Below, in pieces: positions 1,199 through 60,085 of a stretch of 64,000 bases of DNA; within the stretch, counting starts at the first letter, position 1, and every line of letters starts with the position of its first letter. Origin of the DNA: an uncultured Gemmatimonadales bacterium. Lineage in GTDB: Bacteria > Gemmatimonadota > Gemmatimonadetes > Gemmatimonadales > Gemmatimonadaceae. The stretch is taken from the NCBI GenBank assembly GCA_963701965.1, contig OY969695.1, positions 2,464,001 through 2,528,000 of the forward strand. Reading direction: 5' to 3'. The position numbers and the translations under genes were made by a program. Under the pieces are notes generated by a model, which saw only the letters and a program-made list of their open reading frames with translations, was not told where the DNA came from and did not search any database.

Positions 1199-2110
1199 AT
1201 GGCGAGCGGTTGGTGGCGGCGGCGGGCGACGCCGCTGGAGAATCGGGCCGGCGGCGCCGACCGGTGGTACCTCTGGCGCAGGCACCGCATCGCCTATGGC
1301 GTCCGCGGGAATGGATCGCCGCTCCTGCTCGTCCACGGGATCCACGCGGCGGCGTGGTCCTATGAGTGGCGGCTGGCGGCGGACGCGCTCGGGGCCCGGC
1401 ACACGGTCTACACGATCGACCTGCTGGGTTTCGGCCGGTCGGATCGCCCGGCGATCCGGTATTCGTCGGCCCTCTACGTCGACCTGCTGAGCGACGTCCT
1501 CCGCGACGTCGTCCGGGCGCCGTGCACGATGATCGCGGGTGCGTTGGGTGCCGCGTACGCGACGGCCGCGGCGGCACGCCATCCGGAACGCGTTGGCGCG
1601 TTGGTGCTGGTCGAGCCGGCCGGATTGACGCCGGGTACGCGGCGCGGCGGACGCTGGCGGACCATCCTGCGCCGCGCATTGTACGGACCGGTCGTCGGCG
1701 CGTCGTTGTTCCACGCCCAAACGCGCCGCTCGGCGCTCCGCCGCCGGTTTCGGCTGGCGTACGCGACCGAGGCGCGTGTAACGGACGACATGGTGGAGCA
1801 CTACCATGAGACCGCGCGGCAACCGGGCGCGCGGCATGCGCCGGCGGCGTGGGGGGCGTTCCGGCTGGACCTGGACGTGACCGCGGTCTGGCCGCGGCTC
1901 ATCCACCCCACGCTCATCGTGTGGGGCGCGCACCCGCACCACGCGCCATTAGCGGATTTGCGCGCGCTCCGCGCGGCCCGGCCCGCGGCTGACGCCGCGA
2001 TCATCGAAGGCGCGGGCGACCTCCCGCACGAGGAGTCGAGCGAGGATTTCGTCGAGGTGGTGGAGGCTTTTTTCAGCGGTGCTCGCCAGGACTCACCGGT
2101 GGTGCTTTAG
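1199..2110 (+). CDS. Alpha/beta fold hydrolase (nucleophile apparently Ala)
   Basis: LLLVHGI, IDLLGFGRSDRP, LIVWG and LPHEE motifs. Confidence 0.85.
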   Translation: MASGWWRRRATPLENRAGGADRWYLWRRHRIAYGVRGNGSPLLLVHGIHAAAWSYEWRLAADALGARHTVYTIDLLGFGRSDRPAIRYSSALYVDLLSDVLRDVVRAPCTMIAGALGAAYATAAAARHPERVGALVLVEPAGLTPGTRRGGRWRTILRRALYGPVVGASLFHAQTRRSALRRRFRLAYATEARVTDDMVEHYHETARQPGARHAPAAWGAFRLDLDVTAVWPRLIHPTLIVWGAHPHHAPLADLRALRAARPAADAAIIEGAGDLPHEESSEDFVEVVEAFFSGARQDSPVVL

Positions 2111-2143
2111 CAGGTGCTAGCGCACCTGCCAAAGCACCGTCGG
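2096..2143. terminator. Long hairpin between convergent genes (probable bidirectional terminator)
   Basis: CCGGTGGTGCTTT-A-GCAGGTGC-TAGC-GCACCTGC-C-AAAGCACCGTCGG, ~21-bp interrupted stem. Confidence 0.6.
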
Positions 2144-2202
2144 TTGGATGGGCCGCGGCACTGCAACTCCGCGGGGCCAGCGGCGCGGCTGCTGTAGAGC
2201 GG

Positions 2203-11589: not shown

Positions 11590-14500
11590 ATGGCTCGCCG
11601 AACCAATGCGCTGACGCCGTTTCATCCGCTCGTCCAGCGCTGGTTCCGGGACACGCTCGGGAGCCCGAGCGCGCCGCAAGAGCGCGGCTGGCCCGCCATC
11701 GCGTTGGGCGAGCATACGCTGATTCTGGCGCCGACGGGCACCGGCAAGACGCTGGCGGCGTTTTTGTGGGAACTGAACGCGCTGATCGTCCGCGGGGCCG
11801 AGTCGCCCCTGCCGAACGCGGTCCAGATCCTCTACATCTCGCCCCTCAAGGCACTGGGCAATGATGTGCAGCGGAACCTCGACCGCCCGCTGGCCGACCT
11901 GCGCGCGCGATTCGCCGCGGCCGGCGAGACGTTTCCCGAGATCCGCGTCAATGTCCGGACGGGCGACACGTCGCCCTCGGCCCGCGCGCGGATGCTCCGG
12001 CGCACCCCGCACATTCTGATCACGACGCCCGAGTCCCTGCACATCTTGCTCACCACCGAGCGCGGCCGCACGATCTTCCCCGGCGTGCGCGCCGTCATCG
12101 TCGACGAGATTCACGCGGTCGCCGGCGGCAAGCGCGGCGCGCACCTCGCGCTCACGCTCGAGCGCCTCGATGCGCTGTGCCTCGGCGCCGGCTACAATGC
12201 GCCACAGCGGATCGGCCTCTCCGCCACGCAACGACCGCTCAATGAAGTCGCGCGCTTTCTCGGCGGCGCCGGCGATGACGGACGCTTTCGACCGGTCACC
12301 GTCGTGGACTGCGGACTCGTCAAGAAAATGGAGTTCACCGTGCAGTCGCCGGTGCCCGATCTCGGCGACGTCGGTGGGACGGTCTGGCCCGCCGTCACGG
12401 AGTTGCTCCTGGCGCGCATCCGCGAGGCCCGCACCACGCTCGTGTTCGTGAACAACCGCGGGCAGGCCGAGCGAGTGGCCGTGCGCATCAATGCGCTGGC
12501 CAACGAGGAGCCGGGCTCCGAGCTCGCCAGACCGTATCACGGGTCGCTGTCCAAAGAGCGACGCCTCGCGCTGGAGCGCGCGCTCAAGGCCGGCGAGCTC
12601 CGGGCGCTGGTCACCACCAGCGCGCTGGAGCTGGGCATCGACATCGGCTCCGTCGATCTCGTCGTCCAGATCCAAAGCCCCAAACGCGTCGCCGCCGCCG
12701 TGCAGCGCGCGGGCCGCGCCGGCCACTCGGTGGGCGACGTCAGTCGCGCGGTCTTCGTGCCGACGTTTCGCGATGACCTCATCGAGACGCTCGCCATCGT
12801 CGACGCGGCCCGGGAAGGCGACGTCGAGGCCACCGTCGTCCCGCAGAACGCGCTCGACGTGCTGGCGCAGGTCATCGTGGCCGTCACCTCCACGCCGATC
12901 GAGGGCACGACCGACGAAGCGCTGTATCAGCTCGTGCGCCGCGCCTACCCGTATCATCGCTTGCCCCGGGCGGCGTTCGATGAGACCCTCGCCATGCTCA
13001 GCGGCAAGTATCCGTCCGACGTGGCCGCCGAGCTGGAGCCGCGGCTCACGTGGGATCGCATCACCGGACGCGTCACGGGGTCGCGCGGCAGCCGCATGAC
13101 CGCGGTCATCTCCGGTGGCACCATCCCGGACCGGGGTCTCTATACTGTCAACCTTCCAGACCGCACGCGGCTCGGAGAGCTCGACGAGGAGTTCGTGCAC
13201 GAGTCGCGCGTCGGCGACGTGTTCCAACTCGGCTCCGCGACCTGGCGCATCGGGTCGATCGAGCACGATCGCGTCATCGTGACGCCGGCACCCGGCGCGC
13301 CGGCGCGGATGCCGTTCTGGCACGGCGAGTTCTCGACGCGCGGCGTCGCGGTCAGCCAGCGCGTCGGCGCGTTGCGCCGGGCGTTGACGGTGGCCGCGGA
13401 GACCGACGACGCCGCCTTCGCCGCCGCCAACGGCTGCGACGAGGCGTGCGCCCGCTCGGCGCGCGAATACATCGCGGCGCAACGCGCCGCGACCGGCATC
13501 GTCCCGGACGATCGCACGTTGGTGGTCGAGTGGTTCCGCGACGAAGTGGATTCGGTCCGCGTGGTGATCCATGCCAGCGTCGGCGGGCGCGTGACCGCGC
13601 CCTGGGGCATGGCATTGGCCCGGCGCGCGCGCGACCTCCTCGGCGTCAATGTCGCGGTGCAAACCAACGACGACGGCATCATGCTGCGCCTGCCGCCGCT
13701 CAACGGGCCGCCGCCCATCCGCGCGTTGCTGGCGCAGACGCCGGACGAGGTGGAGCGGGCCGTGCTCGACGAGGTGGGAACGACTCCGTTGTTCGGGGCG
13801 CGGTTCCGGATGAACGCGGCGCGCGCCCTCCTGCTGCCGCGGGGCACGGCGCGGCGGCGCATGCCCCTCTGGCTCCAACGACTCAAAGCCACCGATCTCC
13901 TGCAGGCCGTGCGGGCCTACCCCGAGTTTCCCATCCTCGTGGAGACCTATCGCGAAGTCCTGCGCAATGCGTTCGACATGGACGCGTTGACCGCTGTCGT
14001 CCGGGCGGTCGACGGCGGGCAGCTCGGGCTCCGCATCGTGGAGACGGACCGGCCGTCGCCCTTTGCGTCCGGGCTCTTGCTCGGCTTCGTGATGGACTGG
14101 TTGTACGCCGACGACACGCCGCGCGCCGAGCGGGCCGCGGCGCTGTTGGCCGTCGACCGGGGCATGCTCGACGACGTCATGGGAGTCGACGACACCGTCG
14201 ACGAGGCGACCATGCGGGCCATCGACAATGTGCTCGCCATGCGCCGGGGGACCGCGACCGGGCGGCAGGCGCGTACCGCGGACGAGTTGGCGCATCGGCT
14301 GGAGCGGGCCGGAGATCTGACGCGGGACGAGTTGGTCGCCCGGGAAGCGCCGGACTCGGGCGCACTGCGCGCGCTCCTCGCCTCGAGCCGCGTCGTCGTT
14401 GCCCGCGTCGGCGGGGACGGTAGCGACGGGAGCGCGGACGCCGAGCGGTATATCCTTGCCGAGTATCGCCCGCAATACGATACGGCGAGCGGCGGCGAAG

Positions 14501-16170
14501 GCGCGTCGATGCGCGCAGCGCGGCGAGAGATCCCGGCGCAGCCGGGATCAGTTCAACCGACTCTGGATCTCGCGTCGACGCGCGCAGCGCGACGAGAGAT
14601 CCCGGCGCAGCCGGGATCAGTTCAACCGACTCTGGATCTCGCGTCGACGCGCGCAGCGCGACGCGAGATTTTTGCTCGCTATCTCGCGCTCTCCGGCCCG
14701 GTGACGGTCAATGACGTAGCGGCACGCTATCCGTATCCGCGTCAGTGGATCGCCGCGCGCCTCGCCGAGTGGGAGCGCGCCGGCACGCTGGTGCGGGGCC
14801 GATTTCGGCCGGGCGTCGTCGAGCCGCAGTGGTGCTCCCGCCGCGTGGTGGACCGCGCGCGGCGGCGGGCGCTGGCGGCGCTCCGGGCCGAGATCGAAGC
14901 CACCGACCTCGCGACCTTCGCTGCGTTTCTCCAACGCTGGCAGCACATCGATCCCCGCGACCACCTCGATGGCGAGGCCGGCCTGGCGACGCTGCTGGAG
15001 CAGCTCGACGGTCTGGCCCGACCGGCCGCCGGCTGGGAGCGCGACTATCTCCCCTCCCGCCTCGCGCACTACGACCCCGCGTGGCTGGCGCGCCTCATGA
15101 GCGCGGGCACGCTCGTATGGGCCGGCGCGAACTTGGGCCGGATCCGGTTTTTCGAGCGCGGCGAAGGGGACCTCTGGTCCCGCGCCGTCGACGCGCCGCT
15201 ATCCGAGACCGCCGTCCAAGTGCGCGACACCCTCGCCCGCCTGGGCGCATCGTTCCTCGCCGATCTCGCGACAGAGACTGGCAAGACCCCCCTCAACGTC
15301 AAAGACGCGCTGCGGGAGCTGGTGGCGGCCGGCATCGCGACCAACGACACCGCCGAGGCCATGCGCGAGATCGTGCGGATGCCCGCGCTGCCGGGGCGCG
15401 CGCGGCGCGACGAGCCCGATCCCACGCGCTGGCTCCCCGCCGGCTTCACGCCGCGGCCCGTCGTGCAGCGTCGGGTCAGCGCCCGCCGGCTTCCCCGGTG
15501 GCAGCGCCCCGACCGTCCCGGCCGCGCCGCGGCCTCGGGTTGGATCGGCCGGTGGTCGTTGCTCGACACGCCCGGCACCCGCGGTCCCGCCCTCGACGAG
15601 GAGACCCGCGCGGCCGCGATCGCCGAGCGGTGGCTGGCGCGCTATGGCATCGTGACCCGCGACTGGTGGCGCCGCGAACGGCCTCCCGTGTCGTGGCGCG
15701 CGATCTATCGCGAGCTCCGGCGTCTCGAGCTCCGGGGCGAAGTCCGGCGCGGGTATTTCGTCACCGGCCTGGCCGGAGCGCAGTTCGCCGCGCCCGAGGC
15801 GGTCGAGCGGCTGCGCGCGGCCCGCGACGATCCCAATGCGCCGTTCGTGCTCATGGCCGCGAGCGACCCGGCCCATCCCGATGTCCTCCCGCGTCCCCGC
15901 GGCGCCAGCGCGCTCATCGTGACGCGGCGCGGGATCACGGTCATGACGGTCGAAGGCGCGGGACGGCGCGTGACCATCATGGCGCCGCTGACGGAGCCCG
16001 AAGTCGCCGGGATCGCCGCGCAGTTGGCGGCCCGACACCCGGGGCGGTCGGCGACGCGCGAGCTCGAGACCATCGACGGGCGCCCTGCGGCGACGAGTGC
16101 GCACGCGCCGGGGTTTCTGCGCGCGGGATTCCGGAACGACGGTCTCGCGCTCGCCTACCCGGTCGGTTGA
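11590..16170 (+). CDS. lhr: Lhr family ATP-dependent helicase
   Basis: APTGTGKTLAAF, YISPLKAL, TTPESL, VDEIH, GLSAT, LELGIDIG, QRAGRAGH; C-terminal LARYGIVTR and GEVRRGYFV. Confidence 0.95.
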   Translation: MARRTNALTPFHPLVQRWFRDTLGSPSAPQERGWPAIALGEHTLILAPTGTGKTLAAFLWELNALIVRGAESPLPNAVQILYISPLKALGNDVQRNLDRPLADLRARFAAAGETFPEIRVNVRTGDTSPSARARMLRRTPHILITTPESLHILLTTERGRTIFPGVRAVIVDEIHAVAGGKRGAHLALTLERLDALCLGAGYNAPQRIGLSATQRPLNEVARFLGGAGDDGRFRPVTVVDCGLVKKMEFTVQSPVPDLGDVGGTVWPAVTELLLARIREARTTLVFVNNRGQAERVAVRINALANEEPGSELARPYHGSLSKERRLALERALKAGELRALVTTSALELGIDIGSVDLVVQIQSPKRVAAAVQRAGRAGHSVGDVSRAVFVPTFRDDLIETLAIVDAAREGDVEATVVPQNALDVLAQVIVAVTSTPIEGTTDEALYQLVRRAYPYHRLPRAAFDETLAMLSGKYPSDVAAELEPRLTWDRITGRVTGSRGSRMTAVISGGTIPDRGLYTVNLPDRTRLGELDEEFVHESRVGDVFQLGSATWRIGSIEHDRVIVTPAPGAPARMPFWHGEFSTRGVAVSQRVGALRRALTVAAETDDAAFAAANGCDEACARSAREYIAAQRAATGIVPDDRTLVVEWFRDEVDSVRVVIHASVGGRVTAPWGMALARRARDLLGVNVAVQTNDDGIMLRLPPLNGPPPIRALLAQTPDEVERAVLDEVGTTPLFGARFRMNAARALLLPRGTARRRMPLWLQRLKATDLLQAVRAYPEFPILVETYREVLRNAFDMDALTAVVRAVDGGQLGLRIVETDRPSPFASGLLLGFVMDWLYADDTPRAERAAALLAVDRGMLDDVMGVDDTVDEATMRAIDNVLAMRRGTATGRQARTADELAHRLERAGDLTRDELVAREAPDSGALRALLASSRVVVARVGGDGSDGSADAERYILAEYRPQYDTASGGEGASMRAARREIPAQPGSVQPTLDLASTRAARREIPAQPGSVQPTLDLASTRAARREIFARYLALSGPVTVNDVAARYPYPRQWIAARLAEWERAGTLVRGRFRPGVVEPQWCSRRVVDRARRRALAALRAEIEATDLATFAAFLQRWQHIDPRDHLDGEAGLATLLEQLDGLARPAAGWERDYLPSRLAHYDPAWLARLMSAGTLVWAGANLGRIRFFERGEGDLWSRAVDAPLSETAVQVRDTLARLGASFLADLATETGKTPLNVKDALRELVAAGIATNDTAEAMREIVRMPALPGRARRDEPDPTRWLPAGFTPRPVVQRRVSARRLPRWQRPDRPGRAAASGWIGRWSLLDTPGTRGPALDEETRAAAIAERWLARYGIVTRDWWRRERPPVSWRAIYRELRRLELRGEVRRGYFVTGLAGAQFAAPEAVERLRAARDDPNAPFVLMAASDPAHPDVLPRPRGASALIVTRRGITVMTVEGAGRRVTIMAPLTEPEVAGIAAQLAARHPGRSATRELETIDGRPAATSAHAPGFLRAGFRNDGLALAYPVG
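14502..14669 (+). repeat. In-frame 69-bp tandem repeat (2 full copies + partial) containing a hairpin element
   Basis: Units start at 14502, 14571 and 14640; encode ASTRAARREIPAQPGSVQPTLDL x2; hairpin GATCCCGGC-GCA-GCCGGGATC. Confidence 0.97.
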
Positions 16171-16194
16171 ACCAGGCTCCGCCTGCGCGGAACT

Positions 16195-16683
16195 CTACGC
16201 GGGCGGGACGAGGTTGCCGCAGACGAGCGGCGGCGCGCCCGCCGGCGCCGACTCCACCCGCACGAAATACTGGCCGTTCGTCGGAAAGCCCAGTGGGATG
16301 ATGGCATAGTCCGACACCCTCCCCGTCGTGTCGGCCTCCAACAGTCGATACACGCTTGGGGGGCCGAACACGCCGAGGTCCCGGTCGCATTTGCCCTGGT
16401 GCACGCGCCAGGCGTATACGCCAGGGCTCGCGCGGCGCACGTCGATCCGCACGCGGATCGAGTGGTTGTCCGACGCGCCCGCCGCCATCCAGGCGATCCC
16501 ATACGGACCAGCGGTGGTGTCGCCGGCGGTGTCCTCCGGGGACCACAACGTCGCGTTCCAGCGCGTAGTCGAGGGGGGGTCCGGCTGCGGCGTGACCGCG
16601 TGCCGCGCACGGCGCATGAGTCCGCAGCCGAGACCGGACACCGATGCGACGAAAGCGATCCATGGGGGGCACAATCGGAACAT
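16195..16683 (-). CDS. Hypothetical lipoprotein (Cu/Zn-SOD- or CHRD-like small domain)
   Basis: Lipobox GLGC; WRVHQGKC...YFVRV...LVCGNL pattern; TAATAT box 8 nt upstream. Confidence 0.6.
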   Translation of the reverse strand: MFRLCPPWIAFVASVSGLGCGLMRRARHAVTPQPDPPSTTRWNATLWSPEDTAGDTTAGPYGIAWMAAGASDNHSIRVRIDVRRASPGVYAWRVHQGKCDRDLGVFGPPSVYRLLEADTTGRVSDYAIIPLGFPTNGQYFVRVESAPAGAPPLVCGNLVPPA

Positions 16684-16701
16684 GGGGAACAATATTACAG
16701 G

Positions 16702-17304
16702 GTGAGCGCCCGCCAATTCGACCGCGCGTATTTCGATCGCTGGTATCGCCACCCGGTGCATCGCGTGAAATCCGCAGGCGAGCTGTCGCGCGAAGTCGAG
16801 TTCGTGCTGCGCGCGACGGAACATATTCTCGGACGCGCCGTCCGGACGGTCCTCGACGTCGGCTGCGGCGAAGGCAACTGGTACCCGGTGCTAGCGGAGC
16901 GGCGTCCCGCGCTCCGCTACACGGGGGTCGACCCGAGCGAGTACGCGGTGCGCCAATGGACGGCGCGCCGCCACATCCGGCGCGGGTCGATCGGCGATCT
17001 CGGCCGCCTCGGTCTCGACGGCCCGTTCGACCTCATTATCTCGAGCGGCGTGTTGAACTACCTCACGCCCCGCGAGCTGACGCGCGGTTTGCGCGAGATC
17101 GCCGCGCTGCTCGGTGGCGTCGCCTATCTCGAGCTCTACACCGACGCGGACGCGGTGATCGGCGACACGCGCGACGCCCCGCGCCGCTCCGCGGCCTGGT
17201 ATCGCCGCGCGACGCGGCGCGCCGGCCTCGTCGCCTGCGGGCTCCATCTCTACGTCGGTTCGGAGATCGCGCCCGAGCTCGCGGAGCTGGAGCGGCCGCG
17301 GTAG
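16702..17304 (+). CDS. Class I SAM-dependent methyltransferase
   Basis: VLDVGCGEG, GVDPS, FDLIISSGVLNYL; GTG start. Confidence 0.88.
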   Translation: MSARQFDRAYFDRWYRHPVHRVKSAGELSREVEFVLRATEHILGRAVRTVLDVGCGEGNWYPVLAERRPALRYTGVDPSEYAVRQWTARRHIRRGSIGDLGRLGLDGPFDLIISSGVLNYLTPRELTRGLREIAALLGGVAYLELYTDADAVIGDTRDAPRRSAAWYRRATRRAGLVACGLHLYVGSEIAPELAELERPR

Positions 17305-17633
17305 GTCGCCTCCACGGCGAGAGCGGCCGCGCTCCAGGCGAGCGCCATCGGGAGCGCCAGCGTCACCACGATCGGCACCGCGGCCGGCGCGTGCAGGATC
17401 GCGCCCACGGTGTGCGCGAGGTTCGCCAGCGGGCCGCGCACGGCGTCGAACACCAACCATCCGCCCACCGCGAGGCACGCCGCCACGGCGCTCCGCGCCG
17501 CTGGCGCGCGGGCCGGGCCGACGCGCCACGCCCACACGAACGCGAAAGCCGGAATTGCCCACCATCCAGCCACTCGCACCGCGGCCGCGAAGACCGCGGT
17601 CAGGGCCACGACGTCGATGAGCGCGGCGAGCAT
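17250..17633 (-). CDS. Small hypothetical membrane protein
   Basis: MLAALIDVVALTAVF...; several hydrophobic segments; directly downstream of the acylase gene. Confidence 0.65.
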   Translation of the reverse strand: MLAALIDVVALTAVFAAAVRVAGWWAIPAFAFVWAWRVGPARAPAARSAVAACLAVGGWLVFDAVRGPLANLAHTVGAILHAPAAVPIVVTLALPMALAWSAAALAVEATYRGRSSSASSGAISEPT

Positions 17634-17641
17634 CGGTCGGA

Positions 17642-20038
17642 TTACCGGGTGCGATCGAATTCGAGGATCGCGATCGCGCCGTTGGACGCCGCTTCGTCGG
17701 GCGTCCGCGGCACGGCGATGGAGTCGAGCACACCGGCGGCCCAGCGCGGCAATCGGTCGGCGTAGCGCGGGCTCACGGGGTTGCCGGACTGGCCGCCGGG
17801 GTAGATGGCCCACGCCCGCACCGTCGGGCCCAGTTCGACGACCATGCGCCAACTGGGTCCGTGCACGCCCCGTTTGCCGAGCGGACTGACCGTCTCGGTC
17901 CCGCCGTCCACCGGGATACCGAGCCGCGAGAGCGCGGGGATCTCGAGCAGGTGGTAGATATGGACCGATCGCACCCGATCCCAGCGCCAGCCGCCGCCGT
18001 CGGGCGGCCCGTAGAGCCGGGTCACGTGCGTCAACGCCGCCCGCAGGCTCGCGGCCAGCACGGAATCGCGCGGCGCGTCCCACCACGCGCTCGTCGAGTC
18101 GCCGAGCAGCTCGCCCAACACCGCTTCGTTGGGGCGGACGGGCAATCGGCGCCACACGTGGTCCTGCAGCTGATCCATCGCCTCCTCGAACAGCACCGCG
18201 CGCGTATTCTCCCGCGTGTAGCGGCGGTCCCATTCGGCCAGCAGGCGCCCCGCTTCGCTGCCCCGCGCCGCGCGCAGGAAGAACGGCACGAAGAAGTCGG
18301 CGCGCGCGCTGCCGGGATCCGTCTGGAACCGGCGCATCGCGTCCGGCGTCACCGCCGAATCCGCGCGCAGCAGCGCATTGATGCGCATCGCGCGCCACGG
18401 CGGCTCCCAGTCCGCAGCCAGATAACCCGGTGACGCGGCCGGGTCGCTTGGCTCTTGGTTCGCCGAGGCCAAGAAGCCCTGCGGCGGGTTGATCGCGGTC
18501 GGCCAGGCGGCCACGGGTTCGTCGGCGCGCCAATCGCTGGCGGCCAATGCGCCATCGCGGATGACCGTGCCGAGATCGTCGCCGCCCCGCACCGGAAATC
18601 GCCCGTTCGAGCGAATGGCGATAGTCCCCGCGCGATCGGCGACGAGCATGTTCTGCGCCGGCACCAGAAACCCTTCCATGCCCCGCAGAAACTCCGCCAC
18701 GGTATGGGCGTGGGCCGCGTGGTCGAGCGCTGTGACGTTGTCGGATGGCTCCAGGGCCGTCCACCGCGTGGAAATCCAGTGTCCGCCAACGCGCCGCAGC
18801 GGCCCGCGGTGCGTGTAGCGCAGAGTGTCCGTCGCCAGCACCCGCCCCGACGGATCGCGATACGCCTCGACGTCGCGCTCGATGGGCCGCCACGCGCCAT
18901 CGACGCGATACCGCGTCGGCTGCACCGGATCGTCGACGGTCTCGGCGTATTCGTCCATGACGTCGGCGCCGGTATTCGTGAACGTCCACGCGATATCGCG
19001 ATTGAACCCAATGACGATGTTCGGCGATCCCGGTATGGTGACGCCGTACACGTCCATCTCCCCGGGCACGACGAGATGCGCCTCGTACCAGATCGAGGGC
19101 AACGTGAGATCGAGATGCGGATCGCCCGCCAGCAACGCGGCGCCGTTCCGCGTGCGGCGCGGCGCCACCGCCCAATTGTTGCTGCCAACGTCGTAGTGGG
19201 GCGCGTCGGGCGGCGGCGCGAAGGCGAAGCCGGGGAGCGTCGTGTCCGGCGCGCCCGGTGGCGGCAGGCGCCCGGGAAGCCACCGGGGTTCGGTGATCCC
19301 CGAACCGGCCGGCGGCGGGACGATCGGTTGCTGCAGGGGGCTATGGATCGGCAACAGCGCATCGGCCGCCACCGTCCCCACCCGCGCGGCGAGCGCGGTG
19401 CGCGCCGCTTCGTCGTCGCTCATTGCCAGCACGACGCTCATCCGGTTCAACAGATGCAGCGTGTTGATCGGCAACCAACGCACCGGCCGCCGCCCCAATA
19501 GATGGTATTCGAACGGCAGATCCTGGGGCTTCATCCGGGCGATCCACGTGTTGACCCCATCGGCGTAGGCGCGCGACGCCCGATAGGCCAACCCGGTGGT
19601 ATCCCACGACGCAACCTGTCGCTCCGCCGCTCGCGGCAGCCCGAGGGCGCGCGCCTCGCGGTCGAGCGGCAACGCGGCGGCGCCGAGCAACTCGGTGAGA
19701 TGACCACTCGCCGCCCGGGTCTGGATATCCAGTTGGAACAACCGGTCGCGCGCCACCACATAGCCCAGCGCCCGATACGCATCGAGCGTCGTATGGGCGA
19801 AGATGTGCGGCACGCCCCGCGTGTCGTAGAACACCCGCACCGACGAATCCAGCGTGCGCATCCGTCGCACCAGCGTGAATTCCGGAAGCTCGGCCCCCGG
19901 AGCGACCGACCACACGCCCGTCGCGGGATTGAGGAACACGCCGAGCGGGGGCAGCGGACCGAGTCGCGGCGCGCTGAGTCCCAGGGTCACGACGAGAACA
20001 GCGAGCGCGCCGGCGATGCGCCACGGTCGGCGGGGCAT
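17642..20038 (-). CDS. Penicillin acylase family Ntn-hydrolase (S45)
   Basis: DTRGVPHIFA, ARDRLFQLD, GSNNWAV (catalytic Ser), AGDPHL, PGGQSGNP. Confidence 0.95.
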   Translation of the reverse strand: MPRRPWRIAGALAVLVVTLGLSAPRLGPLPPLGVFLNPATGVWSVAPGAELPEFTLVRRMRTLDSSVRVFYDTRGVPHIFAHTTLDAYRALGYVVARDRLFQLDIQTRAASGHLTELLGAAALPLDREARALGLPRAAERQVASWDTTGLAYRASRAYADGVNTWIARMKPQDLPFEYHLLGRRPVRWLPINTLHLLNRMSVVLAMSDDEAARTALAARVGTVAADALLPIHSPLQQPIVPPPAGSGITEPRWLPGRLPPPGAPDTTLPGFAFAPPPDAPHYDVGSNNWAVAPRRTRNGAALLAGDPHLDLTLPSIWYEAHLVVPGEMDVYGVTIPGSPNIVIGFNRDIAWTFTNTGADVMDEYAETVDDPVQPTRYRVDGAWRPIERDVEAYRDPSGRVLATDTLRYTHRGPLRRVGGHWISTRWTALEPSDNVTALDHAAHAHTVAEFLRGMEGFLVPAQNMLVADRAGTIAIRSNGRFPVRGGDDLGTVIRDGALAASDWRADEPVAAWPTAINPPQGFLASANQEPSDPAASPGYLAADWEPPWRAMRINALLRADSAVTPDAMRRFQTDPGSARADFFVPFFLRAARGSEAGRLLAEWDRRYTRENTRAVLFEEAMDQLQDHVWRRLPVRPNEAVLGELLGDSTSAWWDAPRDSVLAASLRAALTHVTRLYGPPDGGGWRWDRVRSVHIYHLLEIPALSRLGIPVDGGTETVSPLGKRGVHGPSWRMVVELGPTVRAWAIYPGGQSGNPVSPRYADRLPRWAAGVLDSIAVPRTPDEAASNGAIAILEFDRTR

Positions 20039-20089
20039 GACACAAGTTGCCACGGTGCGCTCGCGACGGCGAGGCCCGTGGAGACGCCG

Positions 20090-21769
20090 TTACGGGTTCG
20101 GCGTCCGCGTCCGACGCAGCGAGTCCGCGGTGTCCCGCGGCGGGCGCACCGACACCGCGAGTCCCGGGTCCGGCTCGGAAGCCCGTGGAATCGGCGCCGC
20201 GCCAGGTTTCACGACGGCCGCCGTCATCGAATCGTGTTGCGGTTCGGCCGGCGGACGGCGGCGGCGGAGCTTGTGGTGCACCGGCGCCGCGGAGGCCACC
20301 GTCATGGTGTCGATCCGCGCCGGCGGCGGCGTCACCAGGGCAACGGACCGCGCGGTCCGCCCGCTCGGCGCCAGTGCCTCGATCGGCGGAGCCACGTATG
20401 GCGCCGCCGGATCCGGCGATGTCGCTGGCGGTGGGGCGGCGGGCGGTGACGCTTGCGGCGATGCCGGCGACGATGCCGCGGGCGGCGGGATGACCACCGG
20501 CGCCAGTCGCGCCGGCGTGGTCGGTGCGTTCGACCGGACCAGCTGCACCGTCAGCACGCTCGTCGCCAATGCGACGAACGCGCTGCAGATCACCGCGAGC
20601 CCCAGCAGACGCCGCCGATCCAACGCCGGACTGGGCACGCGGATGAACGTGTGCTGCGGGCGCGGCGGTACGGTCCGCGGCTCGCCCGGCGGTCCCGCCG
20701 TCGCCGGCTCGCTCCATCCGGCCGGCCGGCCTTTGACCCAGGCTTTGCGCCGCTCGATGCCGTCCCAGCGCCGCCGATCGCGCCCGCCGTATCCGTCGGC
20801 GCCACCCGTCGGCCCCGACACGCGCCGCACGGGCAAGCTCGGTCGAGGAAGCGGAACAGGACTCGACGGCCCCTCGCGCACGGCCGGCGCGCGGGACTCC
20901 GGCCGATACAGGGCGGCGAGCCCGGCGATCGGCGTCGCCAACGTGGGCACGCCTTTGGTCGCCGTACCGGTCCAGGGCTCCAACATGGCCGCGACGTCCA
21001 CCTGCACCCCGTGATCCAGCACTTCATGCACGGCCCGCTCGGGCTCCTGCGCCGCGATGGCCTCGCGCGCCGCCGCCCACGGCGCGCCAGGCACCGCGCC
21101 ACTGCACGCGCACCCGACGCGCGCCGCGAGATCAATGACGCACCAATGGCGCTTGGATACGTGATACGCGATTTCGGCGACGTAGTCGACGGACTCGGGT
21201 TCGGTCACGGCCTGCCCGCGCCCCTCGGCATAGACCCAATTCGGCGCCGGCACACCGCCCGGCAACGAGTAGAATCGGCGCCCATCGCGCGCGACCCGCT
21301 CGTCCATGGTCGTCGGTTGCTCGGTCGGTATGATGCCGCGCTTGGCGAGGCTCTTGAGCAGCGCCGCGGGCGAGGCGTACTTGTCGATGGCGGGATCCAC
21401 CGCGCCCGGACAGTCGCCGATGTACGTGACATGCAGCCCGTGCAGTCCCGCGCGGGCGCGGAGGTACCGCGCCGCGGCGACAGGCGGGGAGATGAACGGC
21501 AGGAGATTCGGCCGGAGGCTCCCGATCCGTCGCATCTTCTCGGCGACCCGGGGACAGGAGCACAGGATCAGCGCCTCGTCGCCGCGCGCCGCCAGCCGCT
21601 TGAGCGTCGCCTCGGCGATCAGCTCATCGCCCCAACTCGCCGGCACGGCCGCGGTGTAGCCCGCGGCCACGCACGCGTTGGCCAGCTGCACAGGCGTAGC
21701 CGGACGCGCCGCGAGAATCGCGTCCGCGCCGAGGATGACGACGGCCGGTGCTTGTTGCTGCTGGGACAA
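20090..21769 (-). CDS. Protein with degenerate [FeFe]-hydrogenase large-subunit C-terminal-like domain, TM helix and Pro-rich tail
   Basis: SWGDELIA, ILCSCPRV, ISPPVAAARYLR, VTYIGDCPG, SLPGG, IDLAARVGCACSG; TM LLGLAVICSAFVALATSVLTV; TTG start. Confidence 0.65.
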   Translation of the reverse strand: MSQQQQAPAVVILGADAILAARPATPVQLANACVAAGYTAAVPASWGDELIAEATLKRLAARGDEALILCSCPRVAEKMRRIGSLRPNLLPFISPPVAAARYLRARAGLHGLHVTYIGDCPGAVDPAIDKYASPAALLKSLAKRGIIPTEQPTTMDERVARDGRRFYSLPGGVPAPNWVYAEGRGQAVTEPESVDYVAEIAYHVSKRHWCVIDLAARVGCACSGAVPGAPWAAAREAIAAQEPERAVHEVLDHGVQVDVAAMLEPWTGTATKGVPTLATPIAGLAALYRPESRAPAVREGPSSPVPLPRPSLPVRRVSGPTGGADGYGGRDRRRWDGIERRKAWVKGRPAGWSEPATAGPPGEPRTVPPRPQHTFIRVPSPALDRRRLLGLAVICSAFVALATSVLTVQLVRSNAPTTPARLAPVVIPPPAASSPASPQASPPAAPPPATSPDPAAPYVAPPIEALAPSGRTARSVALVTPPPARIDTMTVASAAPVHHKLRRRRPPAEPQHDSMTAAVVKPGAAPIPRASEPDPGLAVSVRPPRDTADSLRRTRTPNP

Positions 21770-21807
21770 GGCGTTTTGAGGCTAGAGCCGTAAAGAGTGC
21801 AGCGGAG

Positions 21808-21843
21808 GAGCTCTCGGCGCAGCCGAGAGCTGTCCAACCGACT
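21808..21843 (+). repeat. Intergenic copy of the hairpin element found inside lhr
   Basis: GAGCTCTCGGCGCAGCCGAGAGCTGTCCAACCGACT versus lhr GAGATCCCGGCGCAGCCGGGATCAGTTCAACCGACT: 30/36 identical, stem differences compensatory. Confidence 0.85.
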
Positions 21844-21901
21844 GCCTCTCACGGGTGCGTCAGCACCCAATGAGAGGCCCCTCAGAGAGAGGACGTCCCG
21901 C

Positions 21902-46478: not shown

Positions 46479-47054
46479 ATGCCGCGCGGCGACGAGTGGG
46501 AAGACGAGCTCCGGTTCTCCGACCGGGATGATGAGGGGGACGACGCCGGCTACGGCGGCGGCGCCGGTGGCGGCGGAGCCGCCTATGACGACGACGATGA
46601 CGAAGAGGATGGCGGCTGGGCGATCACCAAAGACGCCAGCGAAGAGCTGTGGGATAGTGCCGAGGATGGGGAGGACGACGACGAGGAGGCGGAGGTCGTC
46701 GTCGCCGAGGTAGAGGGCGACGAGGACGAAGGCGACCTGTTCGGCGCCGCGCGTGTGCCCGCTAAAGCGCCCGCGAAGACCCCGGCCAAGGCGCCGGCGA
46801 AAGCCGCGGCCAAACAGCCGGTGAAGAAAGCGGCCCCCGCGAAGGCGGCGGCCAAGGCCCCGGCCAAGAAAGTCGCGAAGAAAGCGGCGAAGGCGGCGAA
46901 AAAAGCCCCCGCCAAGAAGGCGAAGAAGGCGGCGCCGCGTGCTGCCGCGAAAAAGAGCGGCAAGAAAGTCGCGAAGGCCGCGTCCAAGCCTTCGAAGGGT
47001 GCGAAGAAAGGCGGTGGGAACAAGGGAAAGAAAGGCAAGAAGGGGAAGCGCTAG
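46479..47054 (+). CDS. Bipolar low-complexity protein: acidic N-half and histone-H1-like Lys/Ala C-half
   Basis: Strong RBS GAGGAGG; D/E-rich residues 1-86; PAKK/AAKK repeats afterwards. Confidence 0.8.
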   Translation: MPRGDEWEDELRFSDRDDEGDDAGYGGGAGGGGAAYDDDDDEEDGGWAITKDASEELWDSAEDGEDDDEEAEVVVAEVEGDEDEGDLFGAARVPAKAPAKTPAKAPAKAAAKQPVKKAAPAKAAAKAPAKKVAKKAAKAAKKAPAKKAKKAAPRAAAKKSGKKVAKAASKPSKGAKKGGGNKGKKGKKGKR

Positions 47055-59548: not shown

Positions 59549-60085
59549 ATGGCCAGTTCGAAACGCACCCGTCGCACCAGCAAGTCGCACCGCAAGCCAT
59601 CGCGCGCCAAGGCGGCCAAGCGCACGGTGACGCGCGCGTCGTCCGCGCGCAAATCGACACGCAGCGCATCGAAGCGCAGCGCGCCGAAGCGCAAGAAGGC
59701 CGCCGTCCGGAGAGCCGCCGCCAAGACCGCTCCCAAAGCCGCCGTGAAGGCGAAGACGGCGAAAGCGGCGAAGCCAGTCGCTGTCGCGAAGCCCATGCTC
59801 GCGAAGCCCGCGGTCGCGAAGTCTGCGGTCGCGAAGCCTGTGGTCGCGAAGCCCGCAGCGGCGAAGCCGATGATGGCCAAGCCCGCCGAAACGGCCAGCA
59901 CGCCGGGCGGTGGCAAGGTGCCGAACATTGCGGCGAAGCCCGTGCCGCCCGCACCAGCCCCAGTGGAAGCCGCCGCACCGCGCCGGGTGAGTCGCGCCGA
60001 CCGGACCGCGGCACCGGCCGCCACGCCGGTACCAGCCGCGCCAGCGGCCGCGCCCACGACACCGCCCAATACGACCCGGGCGTAG
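59549..60085 (+). CDS. Histone-H1-like basic low-complexity protein
   Basis: R/K/S-rich N-terminus, (V/A)AKP pentapeptide repeats; RBS GGAG. Confidence 0.7.
   Translation: MASSKRTRRTSKSHRKPSRAKAAKRTVTRASSARKSTRSASKRSAPKRKKAAVRRAAAKTAPKAAVKAKTAKAAKPVAVAKPMLAKPAVAKSAVAKPVVAKPAAAKPMMAKPAETASTPGGGKVPNIAAKPVPPAPAPVEAAAPRRVSRADRTAAPAATPVPAAPAAAPTTPPNTTRA

Follow-up and report, generated by a model that had tools for sequence, protein, structure and literature searches.

A dispersed two-hairpin repeat in a genus of Gemmatimonadaceae occurs between genes and in frame within lhr and other coding sequences

Element copies in the lhr region

The window analysed here is a 64-kb stretch (G000:C1:2464001-2528000) of the single-contig, 5.12-Mb genome (67% GC) of an uncultured Gemmatimonadales bacterium, hereafter the source genome (G000). 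It contains five copies of a short dispersed repeat built from two hairpins: two inside the helicase gene lhr, one intergenic and two further copies on the minus strand (Table 1). An earlier note on this DNA had reported only three copies of a 36-nt motif, two in lhr and one between genes, and all three are present at their reported positions. This motif is the front part of a 60-80 nt element, whose second hairpin (hairpin B) reaches 35-45 nt past the 36-mer.

Nearly all copies follow the same order: hairpin A, with a 9-bp stem and mostly a GC-GNA-GC loop; a 12-nt linker, DGTYCAACCGAC, that is nearly invariant; a gap of 1-5 nt; and hairpin B. Many copies in one congener (G003) carry an additional third mini-hairpin. 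Folded as DNA, the intergenic copy and the second lhr copy reach z-scores of -6.8 and -6.0, respectively, values equalled by none of 200 shuffles. The fold of the truncated copy alone is not significant (z -0.46); its antisense strand encodes the final codons of lhr together with the TGA stop, and the copy's 5′ TAG terminates a facing open reading frame (ORF; 16195-16617). The intergenic copy lies antisense between two minus-strand genes. GCAGCG, which had been said to precede all copies, does so inside the window but is no feature of the family, being found at 4 of 80 CGGCGCAGCCG sites genome-wide.

Within lhr, Tandem Repeats Finder delimited a tandem array at 14502-14669 (period 69, 2.4 copies). 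Both copies are read in the lhr frame, as the earlier note had claimed, and IPAQPGSVQPTLDL occurs twice. The 138-bp insert is absent from G001, G002, G003 and G004 (4/4 congeners with the region), in which Lhr is 67-74 aa shorter over the aligned segment; other genera have an unrelated segment at the site. The xRAARREI peptide of the 30-nt segment is ancestral. That IPAQPGSVQPTLDL might likewise be ancestral in Lhr, a possibility raised with the original claim, found no support, since 4/4 congeners lack it in Lhr and more distant orthologues do not conserve it. An AlphaFold model built on a 7-sequence alignment gave the insert a pLDDT of 31-41 and the flanking blocks 79-94, low values being expected for unaligned columns. 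In one soil DNA run, which may be the source sample, short contigs cross from host into copy 1 and from copy 1 into copy 2 with 0 differences; the sequencing runs listed as holding this DNA include no RNA run.

A gene at L156:12686-13975, presumably HDOD/EAL-like, appears frameshifted, and similar splits occur in the lhr of G003; both are consistent with long-read indel errors.

Table 1. Element copies and associated lhr features (positions in the window)
Feature	Position	Strand	Details
Degenerate copy between convergent genes	2101..2178	-	Weak hairpin A; linker with 1 mismatch; 17-bp hairpin B; z -5.65
lhr, large helicase-related protein (host gene)	11590..16170	+	1526 aa, open through insert; Pfam Lhr domains; similar to PDB 7LHL
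Host-like 30-nt segment ASMRAARREI	14502..14531	+	Direct repeats at 14571-14600 and 14640-14669
Copy 1, hairpin A	14529..14549	+	9-bp stem, GCA loop
Net in-frame lhr insertion	14532..14669	+	138 bp = 46 aa; Lhr C-terminal region, length-variable linker
Copy 1, linker DGTYCAACCGAC	14550..14561	+	12 nt
Copy 1, hairpin B	14567..14600	+	3′ part is host-like repeat and overlaps copy 2 start; fold as in copy 2
Copy 2	14598..14669	+	Hairpin A 14598-14618; linker 14619-14630; hairpin B 14636-14669
Truncated copy	16162..16197	-	Hairpin A (4-nt loop) and linker, without hairpin B
Intergenic copy	21809..21878	+	Hairpin A 21809-21831; linker 21831-21842; hairpin B 21844-21878

Conserved structure and distribution of the repeat

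Four of the six differences between the 36-nt copies are compensatory, as previously noted, and convert A-T to C-G at positions 4/22 and C-G to T-A at positions 7/19 (counted by eye). This signature extends across the family. Among 65 distinct cores, two-sided changes affect 7 of the 9 pairs of hairpin A, and 64 cells changed on both sides compared with 21.8 after shuffling (slid controls <=24). Covariation beyond all 500 shuffles bears out the proposed selection for structure. Mean identity is 0.33 in hairpin B versus 0.82 in the linker, and hairpin B folds at -14.1 kcal/mol versus -7.1 for random genomic DNA.

Two further structures considered for the linker were rejected. A GTC-CAACC-GAC mini-hairpin shows no two-sided changes and no covariation of its flanking pair; RYYYAAC, which we take to be an attC motif, is also present, and the attC reading was dropped by eye, the closing GTTRRRY being missing. 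The loop of hairpin A is GNA in 75 of 95 distinct cores. According to the accessible part of PMC13037366, GCGNAGC forms an unusually stable DNA mini-hairpin, and related RNA hairpins are far less stable.

The genome-wide search for further copies proposed earlier was productive: a 36-nt weight matrix gave 89 matches above 14 bits in the source genome (reversed decoys, 0 above 15 bits), and strong loci number 50. Other detectors agree in kind, with 116 matches to a seed profile (nhmmer, E<=10) versus 2 in the reversed decoy, 68 matches to a structural rule versus 0 in the decoy, and 85 occurrences of the exact linker versus 2 in the control. These counts are lower bounds because copies with 4-nt loops are missed.

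A common pattern was found in all five congeners (2, 3, 25, 2 and 5 matches, with 64 in the source genome), and fragmented short-read genomes probably under-count such repeats. A stricter pattern matched 0 of 400 other genomes of the phylum; a looser one matched 39 of 395 non-genus genomes of the family at 1-2 sites each, approximately the reversed-control rate, and the matches listed were unlike the consensus. A broad scan of a genome collection with an overly loose pattern returned at least 109 matches, mostly chance; among the 80 titled matches listed, those with the full hairpin-linker-hairpin form all came from Gemmatimonadaceae or Gemmatimonadales. Ten metagenome loci were recovered, their best protein matches being mostly G000-like genes, and the viral contigs and plasmids scanned held no copies (0 and 0). 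Judged from these genome sequences, the repeat appears restricted to one genus of Gemmatimonadaceae.

Placement in genes and at empty sites

The in-frame colonisation of coding sequence envisaged for lhr is repeated in unrelated genes. Counted over the 50 strong loci, 17 are in frame within genes (one reclassified after a gene-caller miss) and 33 are intergenic; 13 of those in genes are firm interior insertions in named families, the other 4 being close to a terminus or in ORFs that match no Pfam family. Arrays are head-to-tail, with periods of 63, 63, 63 and 69 in genes; intergenic periods include 62, 65 and 68. The B1 subfamily (63 nt, stop-poor, most frames open; 28 loci in all) accounts for 16 of the 17 in-gene loci, whereas the stop-rich B2 subfamily is in genes at 0 of 13 loci (one B2-looking locus was caught by the B1 regular expression). 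This coding filter, with a stop-poor 63-nt subfamily in genes and a stop-rich one never there, gives a direct view of what permits coding-sequence colonisation. The encoded peptides use at least four frames on both strands (IPAQPGSVQPT, DPGAAGISPTD and two antisense frames).

Outside genes, copies are found preferentially at gene 3′ ends: 12 of 33 lie between convergent genes (background 10%), 2 of 33 between divergent genes (background 26%) and 19 between co-directional genes, and several copies begin at a stop codon. Copies in genes are sense in 15 cases and antisense in 2 (p 0.002). Such placement is what a structured RNA kept for its role in the transcript, as a terminator-like, stability or protein-binding element, would be expected to show. 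We nevertheless regard that explanation as very unlikely, given that intergenic copies between co-directional genes are sense about as often as antisense (8 versus 11; p 0.65), that the triloops are of the DNA-type GNA form, and that sites are not conserved between species; Rfam 15 gave 0 matches in the window at gathering score and 0 at E<=0.5 in six loci. The in-gene sense bias can stem from selection on the peptide, because antisense frames are often open. Together, the DNA-type loops and the lack of strand preference among co-directional copies favour a DNA rather than an RNA substrate.

Comparison with congeners separates filled from empty sites and indicates that the repeat is mobile. 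We placed 25 of 36 congener loci syntenically in the source genome, where the linker occurs at 0 of 25; 18 of these 25 sites are 40-110 bp longer in the congener, and two are common to G001 and G003. Conversely, the motif was not seen at the G001 and G003 intervals orthologous to the intergenic copy of the window. Pyruvate kinase of the source genome carries a clean 63-bp insert with 7-nt direct repeat flanks, absent in 5/5 homologues. The inserts of HisH (5/5), AlkA (4/4 homologues) and a TolB-like amidohydrolase (4/4 congeners with a match) are likewise missing, as are those of PIG-L and an anti-sigma-like protein, each in 1 congener; the Ogt insert, 21 aa from the antisense strand, is absent in 8/8 database homologues. 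For 41 of the 50 source-genome copies, the nearest neighbour lies within the same genome.

Several host loci merit separate mention. Two element copies of the source genome sit in a HisH loop at which the hisH gene of G004 (L243) has a different, hairpin-containing in-frame insert of ~80 bp, which suggests a permissive or hotspot loop. Two neighbouring genes of alkylation repair, alkA/ada and ogt (G000:C1:2730958-2733231), both have a copy in frame, which is sense in one of them and antisense in the other. A four-copy antisense array lies at G000:C1:2274944-2275168 between recA-like and imuB-like genes, and the imuB-like ORF may begin earlier and span it. In three congeners (L382, L383, L384), one TAG falls within the match to a copy-hosting alpha/beta hydrolase of the source genome, probably giving a shorter C-terminus. 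The window also has coding repeats of low-complexity Lys/Ala/Pro sequence at 59764-59886 and 46767-46934, with periods of 15, 24, 48 and 54 bp; they have no relation to the element.

Mobilisation and comparison with known systems

We favour, with a probability of about 0.6, a genus-restricted, non-autonomous element resembling repetitive extragenic palindromes (REPs) and Rickettsia palindromic elements (RPEs), copied as single-stranded DNA (ssDNA) in trans by a hairpin-recognising nuclease or transposase that is probably lost or too divergent. The folded single strand would be the substrate, hairpin A and the 12-nt linker would form the recognition site, and hairpin B would be required as structure only. 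A ~63-nt unit would integrate where the target has a short match to the unit's junction (GAGATC-like or CTAG-like) and leave a short direct repeat, after which arrays may expand via slippage or recombination between direct repeats. Survival in a gene would demand a length that is a multiple of 3, a frame without stops and a tolerant loop as the site, so that the in-gene peptides would be passengers.

The proposed integration route is consistent with the end-to-end direct-repeat match, which is 3.98 nt versus 3.57 nt when permuted (0/1000). The direct repeat in lhr is 30 nt long and includes ancestral host codons, and it fits integration at a hairpin-B-like host site. The invariant linker may serve as a precise bait for an ssDNA-processing enzyme, which bears on how REP-like repeats spread without RAYT.

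Several observations weigh against the favoured explanation. Among the genus genomes (67-95% complete), PF01797 (Y1_Tnp) was found in 0/6 and NF047646 (REP_Tyr_transpos) in 0/5, and no small GIY-YIG gene lies beside copies, the source genome holding only UvrC and a UvrC-like protein. No two dispersed copies in the source genome match exactly, identity to the nearest neighbour having a median of 0.85 and a maximum of 0.96; since they mostly resemble each other all the same, the expansion is lineage-specific and not demonstrably ongoing. The congeners are ~20-25% diverged and insertion ends are blurred, and the direct-repeat signal is small, most copies sharing <=4 nt. Covariation counts are not independent events because copies share ancestry, and the equal numbers of G-T and A-C mismatches (13 and 14) do not identify the folded strand.

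The earlier note had proposed looking for a RAYT/TnpA-Y1 or GIY-YIG gene flanked by copies, and with the families tested none was found in the genus. No copy lies within 1.5 kb of the small GIY-YIG genes in G001. A small GIY-YIG-like ORF beside a radC-like gene occurs in that genome in two regions (L217, L218) that are near-identical and probably mobile, with no copy nearby. Y2_Tnp/IS91 was found in 0/6 genomes, the control genomes likewise giving 0, which leaves this zero uninformative. DUF559 gave one weak match in a 1644-aa frame of the source genome and 0/5 in congeners, none beside copies. Reverse transcriptase occurs only in the source genome, distant from copies, and not in G003 with its at least 25 copies. 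IS110 is present in 3/6 genomes with flanks lacking the motif, and no copy is located at the multi-copy genes of the source genome that resemble insertion sequences (IS). A region at G000:C1:238989-254045 combines two IS110-family transposase matches with two reverse-transcriptase ORFs, the latter not found in the five congeners.

Broader screens gave the same result. Pfam annotation of 97 neighbouring or host proteins (20 of 38 merged regions) revealed no recurrent mobile-element family, clustering of ORFs around congener and metagenome copies recovered shared synteny only, and a crude HUH motif scan of the source genome was empty; PF01797 covers class-3 TnpA proteins only partly. We also rejected a miniature inverted-repeat transposable element, as the ends are two separate hairpins and not terminal inverted repeats matching an IS, and no copy lies at IS-like genes or IS110 flanks.

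The lack of any dedicated enzyme in six genomes would be expected if a host housekeeping process were responsible, with repair or template switching capturing stable mini-hairpins in transient ssDNA (lagging strand, repair gaps) at sites of microhomology. The same explanation gains from the clustering of B1 loci near dnaA, where 20 of 28 lie within 0.8 Mb and 16 of these 20 show mirror orientation (an interval chosen post hoc), from repair and helicase hosts (Lhr, AlkA, Ogt and an SNF2 helicase) along with the array between recA-like and imuB-like genes, and from some loci where host sequence already in the empty site is the pairing partner of hairpin B's outer stem. We consider it improbable, however. 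The linker is near-invariant across the genus while hairpin B drifts, which points to sequence-specific recognition; all 50 loci are split 25:25 between strands under a simple origin/terminus model (hand count), with no simple replichore bias apparent; and the family occurs in one genus only, though repair genes are general. GC skew at G000:C1 3.4-4.5 Mb is reversed in sign relative to the simple origin model (dnaA ~2.64 Mb), possibly through a large inversion or mis-join.

We likewise consider it unlikely that the repeat forms a class of its own among mini-elements mobilised as ssDNA, with a 12-nt recognition motif lying between a fixed mini-hairpin and a sequence-free hairpin that insertion completes with target DNA, served by an enzyme outside Y1/RAYT, Ssn and DUF559, and writing new loops preferentially into DNA-repair proteins near the replication origin.

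Derivation from a known tagged family (CGTC/SRM repeats cut by Ssn, or class-3 CnGA REPs) whose enzyme gene was lost is highly improbable in our judgement. Hairpin A matches a tag-less SRM body in 8 of 95 cores versus 0.075% of random 28-mers, and DGTC occurs in the linker, whose end, CCGA, lies just 5′ of hairpin B like the class-3 foot in the available text of PMC6006769. Against this, 0 of 89 copies overlap a match to the full SRM pattern, no enzyme of these kinds was found, and the class-3 REPs in Table S1 of that paper, as far as accessible, have a different, fixed stem, their motif matching the source genome once at <=3 mismatches. A class-3-type REP motif does occur in viral contigs, at 74 loci (L308-L381) of which many lie amid phage structural genes; no TnpA was found within 1.5 kb.

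The repeat can be set beside systems already described. Its copies satisfy the usual description of REPs as multi-copy, short, imperfect and mainly extragenic palindromes, with 33 of 50 loci intergenic and enriched between convergent genes. As in the GTAG/CGTC super-families of intragenic REPs described in the accessible text of Di Nocera et al. 2013 (PMC3733652), the hairpins are short and GC-rich, number in the tens, lie for the most part between convergent or co-directional genes, provide some stop codons and are in some cases in frame in genes, DNA repair genes included; CGTC families are likewise without a known transposase in that text. Unlike them, the present element has no GTAG or CGTC tag at the stem foot (GTAG/GTGG is absent 0-2 nt 5′ of the stem, and the reverse strand starts GTCG, 8 nt off the stem), has a 12-nt internal linker between two hairpins of which hairpin B is conserved in fold only, forms head-to-tail arrays instead of head-to-head dimers, and belongs to a Gemmatimonadaceae lineage.

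SRM/NTS repeats processed by Ssn GIY-YIG ssDNA nucleases share the strand-oriented hairpin and non-palindromic flank, with hairpin A similar to the SRM stem body (accessible part of PMC11893778), yet relative to the pattern given there the HGTC tag is missing at the stem and no single-domain GIY-YIG gene lies beside copies. Class-3 TnpA-Y1 REPs have a CnGA foot in the available text of PMC6006769, and here CCGA lies 1-5 nt 5′ of a hairpin, with no Y1 gene detected in the genus.

RPEs, as presented in the accessible text of PMC10969869, resemble the present repeat in being in frame in unrelated housekeeping genes, in adding 20-46 aa and in their large intragenic share. They differ in a ~150-bp unit, compared with 63-69 bp here, in one conserved peptide, compared with several frames on both strands, and in their hosts, the present one having a large, free-living genome. 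With 16 of 28 B1 loci in frame in genes, such a lineage is now added, and RPE-style creation of peptides is therefore not special to reduced genomes.

The literature searched, with most subscription papers outside it, gave no description of this repeat family in the texts available. The phenomenon itself is already known from intragenic REPs and stop-supplying REP termini (PMC3733652) and from in-frame RPE fusions (PMC10969869), as far as the accessible texts of both go. The earlier description as a REP/RPE-like dispersed palindrome accordingly stands for dispersal, structure and in-frame insertion, but by defining features the element is neither an RPE nor a tagged REP, and its unit is two hairpins. 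It works like intragenic REPs and RPEs, is not a member by tag, and carries an unusual internal tag of its own.

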